This document shows positions 8,412-16,258 of a stretch of 64,000 nucleotides of DNA, in pieces. The DNA is taken from positions 256,001-320,000 of the forward strand of contig JAWOEX010000028.1 in NCBI GenBank assembly GCA_046482545.1. The letters run 5' to 3'. The notes beneath the pieces were generated by a model that saw only the letters and a list, made by a program, of their open reading frames with translations, ran no database searches and had not been told where the DNA came from. Each line of letters opens with the position of its first letter. Positions within the stretch are counted from its first letter, which is position 1. The stretch is from Candidatus Thorarchaeota archaeon (lineage in GTDB: Archaea; Asgardarchaeota; Thorarchaeia; Thorarchaeales; Thorarchaeaceae). A program made the translations under genes and the position numbers.

Positions 8412-9470
8412 ACGCGAATTGGTATCGTCGCAGGGAATGAAGCAAATATGCTGAATGATGCAAAAAGAGTGTACGAAGTACTCAAGGAGCGTCAGACCGA
8501 TATTGTTGTTGATCAAGACACAGGAAAACACATTGACGTAGAAGGCACTCCCTTGACCGAAATCGATGCTGACATTCTCACAATTGTCGGCGGTGACCGT
8601 GTTCTTCTGAGTGCTCTGCTTGAGCTCCGCGACAGTGAAATTCCCGTGTTACCACTCTCTTCAGCACGCGAGCCGGGTTTTCTTTTTGAGGCTGAGGCTT
8701 CCAGCTTTGACAGCTTGGTTTCTGATCTATTGGATGAGAAATGGACATTAGAAAAGCGAGCCAGGATACAGGCCGATATAGCAAGTGAAAGTACTCCACC
8801 AATTCTCAATGAATTGGCCATATTCGCTAGAAGAAGCGCAACCCTAGTTAGATATTCCCTCTATATCGATGGAGAGCTCTTTCTGAAAGACAGTAGTGAT
8901 GGCATTATCATGTCCACTGCGACAGGTAGTACAGCCTATTCAATGAGTGTCGGAGGTCCTGTCGTTCTAAATCCGGCTTCGGTGATATCGGTTGTGCCAG
9001 TAAACAGCGTCAACCCTGCTCAGCGACCTGTAGTTGTCCCTGACGATCAGAAAATCGAAATAAGGGACCTTAGCAGTCGAGTGACGGTAGAAGCAGTTCT
9101 TGACGGGCAGAAAAGATGCACAATAGATAGTGGGCCCGTTCTGATCCATCGTGCTGAAAAGGATGCATTGTTTGTCAAATTCTCAGAGGAGCGAGTTGCA
9201 GCCTTGAGAGGCAAGCTCAAACAGAAGACAGATTCATTTGAAGATTTAGCACAGGATCTTCCGCCAAGCGCTAAACTGGTGCTTAAGACATTGGAATACG
9301 AAGGAGAACTCACTCAGAAAGAAATCATAGAAGAAACCCTCCTTCCACCAAGAACTGTAAGGTATGCCCTTGCAATTCTCATATCCGACCGCATTGTTGA
9401 AAAACATGTTAGCTTAAGAGACAGTAGACAAAGCCTGTACAGAGTAACAGACAGAGTTGGCCTGACCTAA
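8412..9470 (+). CDS. NAD kinase-family protein fused to a C-terminal winged-HTH
   Basis: GGD(R), LNE, DGIIMSTATGSTAYSMSVGGP; C-terminal LPPSAKLVLKTLEYEGELTQKEI...RTVRYAL...RDSRQSLY wHTH. First ATG is 8448 but homology (RIGIV) extends to 8412. Confidence 0.85.
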   Translation, partial: TRIGIVAGNEANMLNDAKRVYEVLKERQTDIVVDQDTGKHIDVEGTPLTEIDADILTIVGGDRVLLSALLELRDSEIPVLPLSSAREPGFLFEAEASSFDSLVSDLLDEKWTLEKRARIQADIASESTPPILNELAIFARRSATLVRYSLYIDGELFLKDSSDGIIMSTATGSTAYSMSVGGPVVLNPASVISVVPVNSVNPAQRPVVVPDDQKIEIRDLSSRVTVEAVLDGQKRCTIDSGPVLIHRAEKDALFVKFSEERVAALRGKLKQKTDSFEDLAQDLPPSAKLVLKTLEYEGELTQKEIIEETLLPPRTVRYALAILISDRIVEKHVSLRDSRQSLYRVTDRVGLT

Positions 9471-9495: not shown

Positions 9496-11634
9496 ATGAA
9501 CAAGACGACTATCCCCAAACCGGAAAACGATGTACTAGCAGCCTACTTTAACAGTGCGAAGAAGATTGCAGATTTTATCGTGGAGGAAAAAGCAATTGAC
9601 GAAACGCAGGGACCCCTTGGCAGAAGTATCCTGCTCATAGCGACCGAGATACTTGATGCAAGGGGTGATGAATATGAAACACCTCCTCATGTAGCAGATG
9701 TACGGGAGAATCTTGAACGGGTATTCAGGGATGCTAGTGATGGCATAGGAGTAGAGGAATACATTGATTGCGCTACGCTGATGCTTTACAGGCTCATTTT
9801 CGGTAAATACACGCACGAAGACTTCAGGTATCTGTACCGTTGGTCTTTATCCGAAATCCGGCAGCAGAATGCGATAGAAGAATGGCTCCGGAGGGCGCTA
9901 GTGGTCCTTCTCCTATGCTCAAAAGAAGAGAAGGAAGATCGAAATATTCTCGATAGTGTGAGGGACTGGATAGAATACCTAGGCGCTCCACTCTGGCATG
10001 CGACCCAGTTTGAGACCGTCCTTGAAGATTTCGGGCTGGACTCGTCTATCCTACAAGAAAGAGAGATGCAATTTGTTGATACCCTTCGACGGCATTCACA
10101 GTACCTCAGAGAAGCAATAGAAGGGAAATCGTATCGTGAAGTGCGAGAAGCTACCAAGAGATGGCTTCCAGGTCGTCTATCTCAGAAGGTTTTTGACATA
10201 TACAAACAGACGGTTGTGCAGGCTGCTAGTGAAAGGATCTCTCGTGGTATGAAGATAAAGGAGGTAAGAAATGAGCTTGAAGGAATCATGCGAGAGCATG
10301 GTTTCCTGTCTGAGGGAGGAACACTTCTACCAGTGAAATTAGAGATTCTTGATTCGCCACCTACTCCAAGTGCAATAGATACTAAGACGCTTGAACTTAT
10401 TCCGCAAGAACTACAGATTGATTTGCTACCCACTATTGCGTATTCAGAGCCAACCGATAAGATAGAAATCTTGTTTCTAGGAGGGCCTCATATTGGTAGA
10501 AGTGGGATTCTCATCAAAACCAAAAATGGTGGGGTTCTGTTTGATTTCGGGCTCTCCGTAGCAAATCAGCGAATCCCCCAATGGGTTCCAGAGCTGGAAA
10601 TGATTGATAACGTTCTCATTACTCACGCTCACCTAGATCACGTCGGTGGACTGCCAATTCTATATGATCGCTATGATGGAAAGTGGTGCTCAGTAGGTCC
10701 AACTGCTGCAATATCTTTGTCCCTTCTGGAGGATGCTCTGAAAGTGGGCACCCCTACACCACCGCGGGGGAATGAACCATTGGAAAGAGTTTCACGATTT
10801 ACAAAGCGCAATATCGAGAAAGTCAGACAGAACTATATCCGACTTGAATCCGGCAAGAGCTATGAAGTTGGACCCGGTATCGTCGTGACCCCGATTGAAG
10901 CCTGCCATATCCATGGCAGTGTGGCGTATCTGATAGACATAGAAGGCAAGAAAATCCTATACACAGGAGACTTCAACCTTGACAAGAGCCTGCTCTTTCG
11001 GGGAGCAAACTTGCCCACAGATGCTGATGTAACCATTTTCGACGGCACATATTGGGGCAGAGAAGACTTCGATAGAGACAAGGTGAAGGAGCAAGTATCC
11101 GCTGCTACAAGGGAGTATGGACCTGTAATTATCCCGGCCTTTGCGGTTGGTCGAAGCCAAGAGATGCTGGTGCTATTGGAAGAACTGAAAATTACCGAAT
11201 CTCGTAATGTCATGGTTGCAGGACTTGCCGAATACATAACGAAGCTGTTGGGAGTTGAAGGAAATTGGCATGGAATGAAAAAGAACAAGTTGCATCTCGA
11301 CAAAGATGATATTCTTGTAGCTGGTAATGGGATGATGGCTGGGGGGTTGGCAAAAGCACATTTCAGAGAACATCGGAGAAATGAAGATGCTGCAGTGATT
11401 CTCTGCGGGTATTTGGCTCCCCGAACACCGGGCTGGAATCTCCTAAATGGTTTTGAACCCCACGACTGTCATGTAGAATATGCTAGATTAAGTGCACACA
11501 CTTCCGCTTCAAATCTTGAGGGTTATGTTAAAGATTGCTCGGGAAAGAAAATCATGGTGCATACACCGATAGAGAAATCTCCCCATGGAGTCCTTTGTCC
11601 AGGTTACAAGGAGCGAATAACACTAGACGTGTGA
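9496..11634 (+). CDS. beta-CASP metallo-beta-lactamase ribonuclease (CPSF-like) with a large N-terminal domain
   Basis: LFDFG, THAHLDH, HIHGS, YTGD, DGTY, IPAFAVGRSQE, LSAH, VH motifs. Confidence 0.85.
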   Translation: MNKTTIPKPENDVLAAYFNSAKKIADFIVEEKAIDETQGPLGRSILLIATEILDARGDEYETPPHVADVRENLERVFRDASDGIGVEEYIDCATLMLYRLIFGKYTHEDFRYLYRWSLSEIRQQNAIEEWLRRALVVLLLCSKEEKEDRNILDSVRDWIEYLGAPLWHATQFETVLEDFGLDSSILQEREMQFVDTLRRHSQYLREAIEGKSYREVREATKRWLPGRLSQKVFDIYKQTVVQAASERISRGMKIKEVRNELEGIMREHGFLSEGGTLLPVKLEILDSPPTPSAIDTKTLELIPQELQIDLLPTIAYSEPTDKIEILFLGGPHIGRSGILIKTKNGGVLFDFGLSVANQRIPQWVPELEMIDNVLITHAHLDHVGGLPILYDRYDGKWCSVGPTAAISLSLLEDALKVGTPTPPRGNEPLERVSRFTKRNIEKVRQNYIRLESGKSYEVGPGIVVTPIEACHIHGSVAYLIDIEGKKILYTGDFNLDKSLLFRGANLPTDADVTIFDGTYWGREDFDRDKVKEQVSAATREYGPVIIPAFAVGRSQEMLVLLEELKITESRNVMVAGLAEYITKLLGVEGNWHGMKKNKLHLDKDDILVAGNGMMAGGLAKAHFREHRRNEDAAVILCGYLAPRTPGWNLLNGFEPHDCHVEYARLSAHTSASNLEGYVKDCSGKKIMVHTPIEKSPHGVLCPGYKERITLDV

Positions 11635-11644
11635 AAAACATCCG

Positions 11645-13612
11645 CTAGGCAATAATTTCCAGTGTGCCACTTAAAACAAGCTTCTGAGCTACGAATTTGA
11701 GCGGGCTTAAATTGACGTTCAGTCCATCCACGATTTCATTTAGTGGTGTCTTACCATCACAGCGGCTGACAAATCTCTCTATGAATTCACGACCGTACGG
11801 CGAATCCTTTGGTGGCTCTCCCGCCTTTGCGAGAATAGTATCCTCGGATATCTCTACTTTGAAGTCAATCCAATCATACGCTGCCAGTATCTGTAGAGCT
11901 CCCATAACAATCTCTCTCGGAAGATCCAGACTCCGTACTATTCCGCCAACTGTTGAGACCCCATCGATAGCCTCAGTCACTTTAACGATTGCTCTGCCAA
12001 CTTCCCGGTTATCGAATGGTATCCGTTTTCCTGCTTCTCGTGATCTGGCGATGTAATCCAAGCTGAGAGGGCGGAGGGGTAATTCAGACAATACAGTGAA
12101 TACGGACTCTTCGAAATCTTTCAAATCGATGTTCTCCGCACCCCATGCTTCTTCGAACATCTCTTCTATATCCAGTAGCACAGAAGCCATCTTCTGCCGT
12201 TGGGACGCCTCTTCTTTCTCATTGGTGACAACGGTTGCTAATAGGAAATGGTCAGATTTCTCAATGAAAACATGGTTCCCCTCATGCTCAATAGTCTCCA
12301 GAGTATCAGTTCTTCCCGACTCTTCCGCAGATGGCTGAGTAATGGAGCCAAGAGAATCGAGGGCTGATATGAGAGAACTAATGCTGGTCGAGTCGATTTC
12401 CTCCTCAGTGTATCTCAGACTATAAACTGGCTTTAGAACTCCGTGGTCTTCATATATGAGAACCGTATGCAGAATTTCTGTTTTCTTGTCTTCTGCTTCT
12501 TGTTTCTTTTCTTCGGCTGCATGTTTAGGTGTTTGTTCAGCCTCAGAAGCAACAGTCTTCCGCTTAGTATCAGCAACTGTATTTCCTGAATTGCCAGCTG
12601 GTGTTACCTCGGCGTTAGGTTCTGTGTTCATGTAGGGCTCTGATATCCATTCAGATTCAGTATCCGGCGCTACATCAGTTCCTGGACGAGACTCAAATGG
12701 ATCATCGATTTCTTCTGACCCTTTCCGAACGGTTATCATTTCACTGATTGGTCTCTCTGGCAGATTCACTCCTACGGTTTTTGCTGACACCTTGAGCATA
12801 AAGCGGATGAATTCCTCCCGCCGAGTCTTATCTGTGGCTACCATGGGGAATGTGGGTGCTCCAACCAACCTCTTGATTTTATCAGCCCGCATCGATTCAG
12901 GAAGGTCTTGCTTATTCGCAATGATGAACAAAGGAACTGCAGGAGCTTCCTTCTTGATGCTACGTAAGAGGGTTTTCGTCTGCATCACGTTTCTGAAACT
13001 GCTGTCGCTGATAAGGAATATTACGTCGGTACCCTGGAAATAGAAGCTCCAGAGATCCTGAAAAACAGCCTGTCCAGCGAAATCCCAAATGGTCACCAAG
13101 AAGGTACCGAATTGGATGGTCTCTGATGAATCAACAGCAACGTTGATGGTAGGTACATAGCCTCCTGGTGCTGGCTCCTTTCCGAACAGTAGCCTAAGCA
13201 AAGTAGTCTTGCCGACACCACCCGACCCCACAAAGGACACTTTGAAGCGAGTGAAAATCAGTTCTCCCAGCAAATCATCTAGATTATCCCTGATGTAACT
13301 GATGCGATTACCTCTGAAAGCGGTTTCAAGTCGGGCTGCACCTTCCCGTACTTTGTGTTTGATAGTACGATCTTCATCTCTTCCATCCGTAGCAAACAGC
13401 AGAAGTCGGCCGCCTTCTATCGGAGAATGGAATACCTTGTGGTCGCCCGCATAGACAGGGGTATCTTTCGCCAGACCTTCAGTCTCTTCGAGGTCATCTA
13501 GACCTGCAAGGAATTCTGAGATATGGTCATCCGTGAAGTCTATCTTCCAGAAGCGGGTGTGTGCCAACACCTCTGCTGACTCCCGGTCGATGACAAGCAC
13601 ATTATGAATCAA
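11645..13612 (-). CDS. Multidomain protein: longin-like / Arf-like small GTPase / longin-like / tandem wHTH
   Basis: G1 GSGGVGKT, G2 YVPTI, G3 WDFAGQ, G4 NKQD; flanking segments show longin-type patterns and IDG/CDG-initiated wHTH repeats. Confidence 0.8.
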   Translation of the reverse strand: MIHNVLVIDRESAEVLAHTRFWKIDFTDDHISEFLAGLDDLEETEGLAKDTPVYAGDHKVFHSPIEGGRLLLFATDGRDEDRTIKHKVREGAARLETAFRGNRISYIRDNLDDLLGELIFTRFKVSFVGSGGVGKTTLLRLLFGKEPAPGGYVPTINVAVDSSETIQFGTFLVTIWDFAGQAVFQDLWSFYFQGTDVIFLISDSSFRNVMQTKTLLRSIKKEAPAVPLFIIANKQDLPESMRADKIKRLVGAPTFPMVATDKTRREEFIRFMLKVSAKTVGVNLPERPISEMITVRKGSEEIDDPFESRPGTDVAPDTESEWISEPYMNTEPNAEVTPAGNSGNTVADTKRKTVASEAEQTPKHAAEEKKQEAEDKKTEILHTVLIYEDHGVLKPVYSLRYTEEEIDSTSISSLISALDSLGSITQPSAEESGRTDTLETIEHEGNHVFIEKSDHFLLATVVTNEKEEASQRQKMASVLLDIEEMFEEAWGAENIDLKDFEESVFTVLSELPLRPLSLDYIARSREAGKRIPFDNREVGRAIVKVTEAIDGVSTVGGIVRSLDLPREIVMGALQILAAYDWIDFKVEISEDTILAKAGEPPKDSPYGREFIERFVSRCDGKTPLNEIVDGLNVNLSPLKFVAQKLVLSGTLEIIA

Positions 13613-13703
13613 ATATCCCAGCTCCCTATGGCATCAAAAATTTTCTTTCTTTGTGTTCAAATTGTTTATCTTCATTTATATCTATGAACGTTTTGGAGGC
13701 GCA

Positions 13704-15443
13704 TTATTCTCTGAAATCAACATAGCCTCGGGCATACATCTGCTTGAAGACATGCGTAACTATACTGATTTCAATCTTTGTAGTGTCAGCTATCGTCGAT
13801 AATGAACGCACCCCATCAATCATCTCTAATATTTCTCGCAGTTCATTGTACTGTTTCATAAAGTCATCATGAGGCTCGTGTAATAAGACTGGAATGTCTT
13901 CATCGTAAATTCTGAGCTCCGTATCAATGGCGCCCATTCTCCTGAGGAAATATAGCCCACCCAGTGTCATTTTGGACTCACTGCCCATGGTAATATCGCC
14001 CAAATCAGCTTCACTGTTGATGCTATCCCAGACAGCATGCAAGAAATCCTTCATCATCGGAAAACGAAAACGGTCCCAATCTGGTTCCTTAGATCTGATG
14101 GGGACTTCTCGCGATGGCCACGAATAGGGGGGGATAGTCGCAAGCAGCTTCAGTGTGAAAGGTGGATGGGCGTACAAATCTCCCGGATTTGGTAGTGGAG
14201 GGGGAGGGTTTTCAAGATATAACGCAGGGAGTTTTCTAAACCTAGACCTGATGTCCTCTAGGTCTTGATCCAGTCCAGTAATGAGCGTGAATAGTAGGTT
14301 CTCCTGTTCGACGATTGCGTATCCTTGCAGCCCCGTTCGAATTACAAAGGTCTCTGCTGAGTCCTGATCAAGACGAAATGTAGAAATCGCTGCTATGACG
14401 TTTGGAGCCCTTTGATGTTCTGTATTCTCTTCATAAAGGTAGGCATAGAGTGTCTCTGCCACATCTTTGTCGATAACCAAGAACTCTTGATGACCTTCCA
14501 TGTCCGAGTCAGGCACACTCGTCTCATCTGGTTTCGATTCTGGTTCTAGCGATTCTATTCTCCATCGCGCCATAGCCAATTCTGGATGCATATCAATGAA
14601 ACCAGCAATTGCCATTACGGAAAGAAGCAAAGCAAGAGGCTCCTCCGAGACTGAATCACAAAGCATGAGCTCATACTTTTCTTCAAACTCTCGGCAGGTT
14701 TGCAGTTCTTTGTCACTACCAGGAACAATCAATATCGGAACCGAAAGTTCTGAATAAATCTCCTCAGCAAGACGCTCTACTCTTTCTTCCTTTATATCAG
14801 ACGAAGAAAAAACAATTGAGACAACATCGATGCTGTTCAGTTCGGTTTGAGACAATCCACCAAGGGCATCAATAGGGTCTAGAATCTTGCATTGGACCCT
14901 ATACGGACCAATGTTAAAGGGCAGAGTGGAGATTGGCTCTTGGCATGGCTTCAGATCAATGATTTTGGAAAGTGCCGTTCCTGTTTTGTTCTGGAATGCA
15001 GGATTCTTACTGGAGAAAAAGACAAGTAGAATATCCTTCAAGAGAAATCTATCTGCCAACTGAGTAAGGATTTGCTGCGGTTCGAAACTTGTTTTCTCAT
15101 GATATCGTTTAGCGAGCTTTTTACCCAGACTCCTTATCCGCTCAAGCTCATCTTCATCTGCGGGTTCTTTTTTTGCAAGACAGACGAGTACCACGTTTTC
15201 CTTCAGTGGACTGACATAGGCTACACGAGAATCGATAGTAGTAACAAACGGAATATCAGGATTGTAGTCCTCATAGACTTCGTAGAACTGGCCTAGAATG
15301 TCATCTAGCGAATCCTTTTCGATCCTTTCTTCCACATAAGAAACCTCAGCCAGTACTTGCAGGTTTCTCAAGTCTAGAAGCTGAACGCTTTGTAACACCA
15401 CGGCTCTCCTAACTCCAGCTGGTAACACGGACAATTTAAGCAA
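13704..15443 (-). CDS. Paralogue of the adjacent protein with a degenerate GTPase-like domain
   Basis: Collinear similarity to 11645..13612 but no P-loop, G3 or G4 motif; true start probably GTG near 15398-15401 after AGGAG. Confidence 0.65.
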   Translation of the reverse strand: MLKLSVLPAGVRRAVVLQSVQLLDLRNLQVLAEVSYVEERIEKDSLDDILGQFYEVYEDYNPDIPFVTTIDSRVAYVSPLKENVVLVCLAKKEPADEDELERIRSLGKKLAKRYHEKTSFEPQQILTQLADRFLLKDILLVFFSSKNPAFQNKTGTALSKIIDLKPCQEPISTLPFNIGPYRVQCKILDPIDALGGLSQTELNSIDVVSIVFSSSDIKEERVERLAEEIYSELSVPILIVPGSDKELQTCREFEEKYELMLCDSVSEEPLALLLSVMAIAGFIDMHPELAMARWRIESLEPESKPDETSVPDSDMEGHQEFLVIDKDVAETLYAYLYEENTEHQRAPNVIAAISTFRLDQDSAETFVIRTGLQGYAIVEQENLLFTLITGLDQDLEDIRSRFRKLPALYLENPPPPLPNPGDLYAHPPFTLKLLATIPPYSWPSREVPIRSKEPDWDRFRFPMMKDFLHAVWDSINSEADLGDITMGSESKMTLGGLYFLRRMGAIDTELRIYDEDIPVLLHEPHDDFMKQYNELREILEMIDGVRSLSTIADTTKIEISIVTHVFKQMYARGYVDFRE

Positions 15444-15601: not shown

Positions 15602-16258
15602 TTAGAAACTCCAACCTCTCTTTCTGTCTACTACGTTCCAAATACACTTTGCAAGCCCTTTCGACATATTCACCGGGTAGTCATCCTCATGCAGGAATTT
15701 TCCCCGTGGAGCAGATGCTTCGGATGTATCATTGCACGTATGAATATCGATACCAACTTCCTTGAGAGCCGCTTCGACCTGACCGAATTCCTCTCGTGAA
15801 CAGCGTGTTCCAAATCCAAGGGCATCCAGTACTCTGAATCCATAAGCTGTCAGCCAGAGGGTTTTGAGATTGATATCAGGACCAGCTGTGTAAACAACTA
15901 CGCGTTCCATTTCTTGTCGACGTAGGTCGAGAATGGCATCGGCATGGCGTATGATATCCGGTCTATCCAACATTCTGTCAAGGTCAAATCTGATAGTTGT
16001 GCCACCATTTGCAATCTGTTTTCTCCACCAATTTAGCACTAGCTCCTTGATTCGGTTTTGTGACTCTCCAGACTGTATTCTGTCGAAGATGATATCCGGA
16101 GGAATATCGATGAGACCTATACCACCAATTCCCAGTATCTTGGGCACATGTTGCATAAGGCGATAGTATCTCCATGCGGGCTCGTAGTACCTTATCTTGG
16201 CAACCCGCTTTCGTAGGCGGTGAAGACTATAGAATGTACTCGAAGACGCTATTCTCAT
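15602..16258 (-). CDS. Hypothetical protein
   Basis: 218-aa ORF co-oriented with neighbours; real start may be internal (MQHVPKILG); no recognised motif. Confidence 0.55.
   Translation of the reverse strand: MRIASSSTFYSLHRLRKRVAKIRYYEPAWRYYRLMQHVPKILGIGGIGLIDIPPDIIFDRIQSGESQNRIKELVLNWWRKQIANGGTTIRFDLDRMLDRPDIIRHADAILDLRRQEMERVVVYTAGPDINLKTLWLTAYGFRVLDALGFGTRCSREEFGQVEAALKEVGIDIHTCNDTSEASAPRGKFLHEDDYPVNMSKGLAKCIWNVVDRKRGWSF

Follow-up and report, generated by a model that had tools for sequence, protein, structure and literature searches.

Co-encoded longin–winged-helix proteins of Thorarchaeota: an intact small GTPase and an adjoining, maintained pseudo-GTPase

What role is left to a protein that has the fold of a small GTPase and none of its motifs, when it is encoded directly beside a relative in which these motifs are intact? 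This question is raised by two adjacent genes, here called A and B, on the reverse strand of a 64,000-nucleotide stretch of DNA from a Candidatus Thorarchaeota archaeon (contig JAWOEX010000028.1 of assembly GCA_046482545.1, positions 256,001 to 320,000; hereafter the window). The product of each gene comprises a longin domain, a G domain, a second longin-type domain, and two winged helices, with nucleotide-binding motifs present in A and absent from B.

An initial annotation of the locus, made from the letters alone, had described the two open reading frames (ORFs) as collinear paralogues, and the ORFs, the motifs quoted for them, and their shared orientation are all present. The start of B had been placed at 15443, yielding a protein of 579 residues, an overestimate by 15 residues: the GTG codon at 15398 has a ribosome-binding site 7 nt upstream, the alignment of the B family begins at the same codon, and the protein in the database has 564 residues, the form according to which B is numbered here. 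A BLASTP comparison of single sequences leaves the link between A and B barely detectable (best E value of 0.019); the family profiles align from end to end, over 551–554 columns with 16% identity, a probability of 98.6–99.0, and E values of 8e-16 to 3e-18, bearing out the collinearity along the full length. Domain by domain, the profile match reaches 90% for the first longin, 79–91% for the winged helices, and 26–35% (E 4e-4) for the G domain. The model of B, with a mean predicted local distance difference test score (pLDDT) of 81, consists of a longin, a six-stranded α/β domain, a longin-type domain, and two winged helices, in this order, and the model of A repeats it with the addition of a disordered linker. 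Winged-helix C termini are found in both proteins by models and by profile comparison, as had been proposed. The acidic linker reported for both is substantial in A only, where it spans ~80 residues (40–83 in the A family), but B has ~12. Similarly, longin folds were found for the two longin-like segments of each protein, but the second one of B matches roadblock structures equally well, with VIA Z scores of 11.5 against Ego3/Gse1 and 11.3 against Ragulator chains. Named homologues of both A and B come nearly all from Thorarchaeota.

The loss of nucleotide-binding motifs in B is a property of its whole family. Neither the P-loop GxxxxGK[ST] nor the G3 motif WDxxGQ is found in any of 104 homologues, and [NT]KxD occurs anywhere in the middle domain of a single one of them. 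The position of the P-loop is typically acidic, and the place of G4/G5 is taken by a conserved patch that extends from strand 5 through helix 5 (PGSD, LCDSVS, DMHPELA). Asp229, kept in 101 of the 104 homologues, is located at the position of the G4 Asp or one residue earlier, with the Asn and Lys of G4 gone. In the most diverged B (L167:5523-7169), which lies apart from A, the patch is lost and the second longin is kept.

That the middle region of B forms a G domain, as the initial annotation had it, agrees with several comparisons. Small GTPases in the PDB match it with Z ~10, and an Atlas structure search with residues 116–285 as the query returned for residues 116–274, besides the cluster of B itself, GTPase families only, with template modelling (TM) scores of 0.58–0.63. 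The B profile also matches intact longin-GTPases over residues 1–223 (E 5e-10). By sequence, the profile of the pseudo-GTPase domain yielded nothing meaningful in the PDB and, among 1.84 billion proteins, just members of the B family and one probable repeat artefact. With its GTPase fold and lost G motifs, B has two of the features of class I pseudoGTPases, and the kept fold and lost motifs suggest that its G domain does not bind nucleotide. In 12 independent close pairs, the ratio of nonsynonymous to synonymous substitution rates (dN/dS) is 0.126 for the pseudo-GTPase and 0.06–0.14 over the domains of B, the most constrained of which is the second longin, at 0.057. Since B is under purifying selection, it is a maintained pseudo-GTPase and no decaying copy.

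The G domain of A presents the opposite picture, with G1, G3, and G4 kept in 118 of 118 homologues. The domain has G1–G4 and the catalytic Gln of the Ras superfamily, and Pfam Arf (E 7.6e-18), Roc, and Ras all match it above their cut-offs, with Gtr1_RagA below its cut-off for the protein of the window. Mean identity across the family is 93% and dN/dS is 0.017, compared with 0.33 in the linker. These intact, near-invariant motifs suggest that A is a working GTP/GDP switch. The first longin of A matches those of delta-COP (Z 13.3) and Vamp7 (Z 12.0), and the second one matches TRAPP and AP2 sigma longins with VIA Z of 10.6–11. The G domain of A is basic, with a median charge of +4, and the G domain of B and the C-terminal platforms of both proteins are acidic. 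The description of A as Arf-like is supported by the Pfam score, but not by the features characteristic of the Arf family. Arf proteins carry the signature wDvGGqxxxRxxW, of which A keeps the Trp alone, with AG and Gln in place of GG and R. Additionally, a feature of the Arf family and Asgard ArfR is an N-terminal amphipathic helix (10.1101/2024.02.28.582541), and no such helix precedes the G domain of A, where the longin fills the N terminus. Longins are carried by some Asgard Arf-clade proteins (PMC11914678), and, going by the longin fusion, our guess among ArfR, ArfL, and Rag is that the clade of gene A is ArfL.

The distribution of the pair was followed in genomes at least 85% complete, 58 from the Thorarchaeota family of the window and 210 others of the phylum. 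Full-length or cut by contig ends, B is present in 55 of the 58, and a full-length B is found in none of the 210, so that a pair looked for across Asgard genomes turns out to be confined to one family. A is present in 56 of the 58 and in the only genome of the sister family; both genes are missing from genomes G012 and G053, and no genome has B without A. The linkage is conserved: of the 74 informative loci, which are kin and hence no independent draws, 69 have B directly before A and no more than 250 nt away; in four loci, the two genes share a strand and lie farther apart, with other genes between them.

It is in their C-terminal halves, and there alone, that A and B have tandem winged helices directly behind a longin, and for this half the likeness to NPRL2/NPRL3 put forward earlier holds. 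The best PDB sequence match of the B profile is NPRL2 171–235, with a marginal E value of 0.064. Residues 299–564 of B are collinear with residues 3–326 of GATOR1 chain 9v0j_B (Z 10.5, root-mean-square deviation (rmsd) 12.9, 189 residues), which we take to be NPRL3 from the length of the chain. NPRL2 and NPRL3 have an N-terminal longin and three winged helices (PMC3521125), a plan that A and B do not follow, having two winged helices and the module in an internal position. Pfam NPR2, NPR3, and DENN gave no match at E 0.1 in 48 members of either family. Foldseek matches include Mon1-Ccz1, Fuzzy-Inturned, and, for both models, Rag chains. The second longin domains of A and B are without the N-terminal helix of roadblocks and are read as longins.

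Both halves of the architecture also exist free-standing, as a longin-GTPase with an acidic tail, matched in 41 of 41 genomes of the class that were searched, and as a protein of 275–300 residues with a longin and two winged helices. A paralogue of 611 residues (G000 C26:99508-101337, L129) has a longin-GTPase 41% identical to the N-terminal half of A, followed by ~300 very acidic residues. The 275–300-residue protein usually occurs as a tandem pair of paralogues, 40% identical, but one copy alone is present in the sister family and at the corresponding locus of the window genome; elsewhere in Thorarchaeota, its module forms pairs of tandem paralogues at two further loci. Free-standing longin–winged-helix loci include G000 C5:8510-9361 (L128) and L137–L166, with a roadblock gene nearby, and a third tandem pair is found in the same genome (G000 C9:85245-87624, L127). 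This combination of tandem pairs with one copy in the sister family is what the conversion of a homodimer into a heterodimer would be expected to leave. A 275-residue protein of genome G025, considered as a C-terminal half of B, was rejected, because its gene occupies the position of the free-standing family.

Tandem duplication would be the simplest account of the identical domain order and the adjacency of A and B. The trees neither favour nor reject the descent of B from such a duplication of A, implied by the term tandem paralogues in the initial annotation: calculated for the C-terminal half from quick searches, and with a very long stem of B (over two substitutions per site), they set B outside the A clade, and a clade of A and B is not rejected by the approximately unbiased test (p-AU 0.29). 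The distance correlations between the domains of A and B are uniformly 0.66–0.83, reflecting shared descent.

Longin and roadblock domains function in pairs; it is through them that the subunits of NPRL2/NPRL3 and of Rag dimerise. Helix 1 of the second longin has a small-residue face in both A and B, and a helix-1 surface of this kind mediates roadblock dimers (PMC10933270). Together with the constraint on the second longin of B and the recurrence of the module as paralogue pairs, this argues for a dimer of A and B via their C-terminal halves. The reading that we favour, by analogy, is that B is a nucleotide-free scaffold partner of A that pairs with it through the second longin domains, a proposal that in our judgment stands evenly poised between right and wrong; gene context and analogy make the heterodimer a plausible inference. 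The two proteins would lie side by side, as do NPRL2/NPRL3 and the C-terminal domains of Rag, in an asymmetric dimer with one switch, tethered by the flexible 80-residue linker of A to an acidic platform made of the longin pair and the winged helices. The nucleotide-free G domain of B would serve as a fixed protein-binding surface, and B would tune, position, or stabilise A and supply no catalytic arginine. Complex predictions for the whole of A with GTP and Mg and for residues 296–564 of B scored 0.01 and 0.03 against a mark of 0.32, which is evidence neither way. We can speculate further that the two proteins combine the roles of Rag and GATOR1 in one self-contained archaeal heterodimer, in which an NPRL2/3-like platform of longins and winged helices acts in cis on the GTPase tethered to it, the other G domain being frozen into an allosteric pseudo-GTPase. 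This is doubtful; were it true, no prokaryotic longin pair that regulates a GTPase and has a known substrate would have been defined before it.

Several observations weigh against a scaffold role of B next to A. The profile match between the second longins, through which the pairing would proceed, is 1–5%, the halves of B are as close to the free-standing paralogues as to A, and the conserved patch of the pseudo-GTPase has decayed in some B proteins still encoded beside A. A has no adjoining B in G015, in which B is located elsewhere on another contig, in G045, 88% complete, in which B was not found, and in G025, the genome of the sister family. To call the pairing obligate was therefore too strong, and the dependence looks one-way, with B always accompanied by A and A sometimes alone. 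In five loci, opposite-strand genes or an integrase-like ORF follow B, so co-transcription is dispensable. Finally, a wider block of NadA, NAD kinase, and the beta-CASP nuclease is also conserved, and the adjacency of A and B may thus in part be inherited gene order.

Of the alternatives, the one that survives best treats B as an independent adaptor or assembly chaperone for other longin proteins, standing beside A by descent; its clients would be, in analogy with the pseudo-GTPase AAGAB and the AP sigma longins to which that protein binds, the free-standing longin–winged-helix pair or the 611-residue paralogue. The equal scores of the B halves against A and these paralogues and the position of B in the best trees are in keeping with such a role, as is the tolerance of the intergenic gap to insertions, and the patch of B covers helix 4 and the β6–α5 loop, elements that AAGAB uses on longins (PMC12490416). 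However, B shares its domain order with the adjoining A and is never found without it, a clade of A and B is not rejected, and the long branch of B may mislead the tree; we consider an adaptor possible, at a rather low probability.

Less probable still is a catalytic regulator of A, either a GTPase-activating protein (GAP) of the GATOR1 type with an arginine finger or a longin-type guanine nucleotide exchange factor (GEF). The tail of B resembles NPRL2/3, and longin pairs are GEFs in Mon1-Ccz1 and Fuzzy-Inturned, both among the Foldseek matches; GEF activity has no sequence signature. For GAP longins such as NPRL2, FLCN, and SMCR8, the mark is a GP motif (PMC12290439), which is found in the β1–β2 loop of the first longin of B in 20 of 104 proteins (Gly in 90), but is missing from the second longins, the NPRL2-like ones. 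Nor do the β4–β5 loops carry an invariant Arg: the second longin of B has Arg365 in 80 of 104 proteins and Gln in the window genome, its first longin has K/R, and the second longin of A has Lys452. With the GP motif so sparse and the arginine variable, a GAP of the GATOR1 type, one of the roles suggested for the inactive partner, appears unlikely, as no conserved combination of GP motif and arginine finger is found.

It is very improbable that the winged helices bind DNA and make the pair a GTP-gated transcription regulator. In some members, they have weak Pfam matches to HTH_47, Rrf2, MarR, and TrmB, but these are all below cut-off, the closest solved match is NPRL2, and a median net charge of +1 to -4, neutral to acidic, renders DNA binding unlikely. 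The recurrence of a motif upstream of both genes would fit such a regulator. This motif, of the form AAGGTTCAT / AAGGTTGAT (window 13682-13692), is seen again ahead of both genes in loci L030–L119. It is located 74–92 nt before A in 29 of 49 cases and 54–82 nt before B in 24 of 46 (3.7 in shuffles), a pattern that is circular, having been drawn from the same related sequences, and genome-wide it shows no enrichment before genes. A promoter or operator common to the two genes is one possible explanation, in which case A and B would be transcribed separately and co-regulated.

A still smaller probability falls to the view that the middle domain of B is a DENN core or a receiver-type α/β domain and no derivative of a GTPase. 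The DENN module is made up of a longin, a five-stranded core, and a helical dDENN. The core does come after the longin, its topology is minimally P-loop-like, and the motifs are missing (PMC3521125); two receiver domains tie with GTPases in a wide search (Z 9.4–9.6). However, homology to intact longin-GTPases spans the domain, including the β2–β3 hairpin, the model has the six-strand order of a G domain, and the receivers align over ~120 residues versus 133–160 for GTPases; no DENN core is among the top structural matches of the domain, in lists that by their nature exclude nothing. That B is a decaying duplicate without function, as its long branch and low identity might imply, is scarcely credible, being already contradicted by the selection data for every domain and by copies in 55 of 58 genomes.

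The features of the locus are collected in Table 1. Downstream of A, the beta-CASP nuclease gene is constant and convergent in 40 of 40 long loci, and the genes upstream of B vary. In the window, this nuclease has an N-terminal region of 320 residues without a Pfam match, and the 3' end of its gene (9496-11634) is 10 nt from that of A. The NAD kinase encoded at 8448-9470 adjoins NadA, is conserved in the block, and has a MarR-like winged helix at its C terminus. An ORF of 218 residues upstream of B (15602-16258) is absent from 40 long related loci and has two paralogues elsewhere in the genome. In locus L049, a tyrosine-integrase-like ORF lies directly after B (L049:4250-4813), which suggests that a mobile element has been inserted in the gap between B and A. 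In G045, genes of a double-receiver regulator and a histidine kinase, assigned from their sequences in this single case, immediately follow A in the same orientation (L195:885-3018). In G025, A is immediately followed by a 184-residue ORF of α/β appearance (L029:6672-7226); considered as a split-off piece of B, it was rejected, with no similarity to A or B and no Pfam match above cut-off.

Table 1. Genes, domains, and neighbouring elements of the A–B locus, in window coordinates
Feature	Position	Strand	Remarks
Gene B, 564 aa	13704..15398	-	longin, pseudo-GTPase, longin/roadblock, two winged helices; model mean pLDDT 81
B first longin, aa 1-118	15045..15398	-	VIA Z 11-11.6 vs AP sigma, sedlin
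B pseudo-GTPase domain, aa 119-285	14544..15044	-	P-loop, G2, and G3 all gone; usually acidic
B second longin/roadblock-like domain, aa 298-424	14127..14507	-	structure matches, dN/dS
B tandem winged helices, NPRL2-like, aa 425-564	13707..14126	-	PDB sequence match and structure alignment
Intergenic gap, 91 nt, B to A	13613..13703	-	contains recurring motif at 13682-13692
Gene A, 655 aa	11645..13612	-	longin, intact small GTPase, acidic linker, longin, two winged helices
A first longin, aa 1-118	13259..13612	-	VIA Z 13.3, rmsd 2.2 vs delta-COP longin
A GTPase domain, aa 119-296	12725..13258	-	G1 GSGGVGKT, G2 T155, G3 WDFAGQ with Q181, G4 NKQD; basic
A acidic linker, variable, aa 297-377	12482..12724	-	pLDDT <50, predicted disordered
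A second longin, aa 378-515	12068..12481	-	strongly acidic; helix 1 (SLISALD) near-invariant
A tandem winged helices, aa 516-655	11648..12067	-	structure model of A and domain profile comparison
beta-CASP metallo-beta-lactamase gene, convergent neighbour	9496..11634	+	context only; Pfam; 40/40 long loci

Asgard genomes encode dozens of GTPases and longins, and assigning a regulator to its GTPase on the basis of gene order has been described as difficult (PMC10933270). In the present case, the GTPase is physically linked to a candidate platform and a partner, and with two soluble proteins it can be tested directly whether archaeal GTPases came under the regulation of NPRL2-like longin pairs. 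B provides a family-wide archaeal pseudo-GTPase under selection. Confined as it is to one Thorarchaeota family, the pair is no eukaryotic ancestor and represents an experiment made in parallel with the same set of protein tools. No paper on an Asgard pseudo-GTPase or on this four-domain pair was found in a literature search that left many subscription papers outside its reach; the pair is real and conserved, and apparently unpublished, with its building blocks already published.

Fusions of longin, G domain, and roadblock are known from MK-D1 (Tran et al., PMC10933270; LokiRagO, PDB 8yl2), as is a Rag-like operon pair with a predicted roadblock dimer. A longin with an NPRL2-type C-terminal domain was reported for most Thor genomes by Liu et al. 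(bioRxiv 10.1101/2020.10.19.343400); the tails of A and B group with the free-standing 275–300-residue proteins of its Asgard 'NPRL2-like' family, and the text of that study does not mention a fusion to a GTPase or pseudo-GTPase such as those of A and B. The DO-GTPase/GAP1 systems (PMC7159879) also consist of co-encoded, paralogous prokaryotic GTPase pairs proposed to form dimers, but they belong to another GTPase family and come with GAP1 and variable effectors, none of which is present at the A–B locus. The class I pseudoGTPases AAGAB and Irc6 (PMC12490416), like B, have a GTPase fold without G motifs, work with longins, and have a conserved surface away from the switch regions, whereas they are eukaryotic, separate from their longin clients, and without an active twin, and the homology recognised with B is that of the fold. 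NPRL2-NPRL3 (Npr2-Npr3, the core of GATOR1/SEACIT) resembles A and B in being two paralogues that each have tandem winged helices after a longin, and Rag/Gtr in being two paralogues with a G domain followed by a roadblock or longin domain. Unlike Rag/Gtr, in which both subunits bind nucleotide, B has no pocket judging by its sequence, and both A and B have an additional N-terminal longin and a winged-helix tail. By architecture, the pair resembles a hybrid of Rag and GATOR1, but it is a member of neither family.

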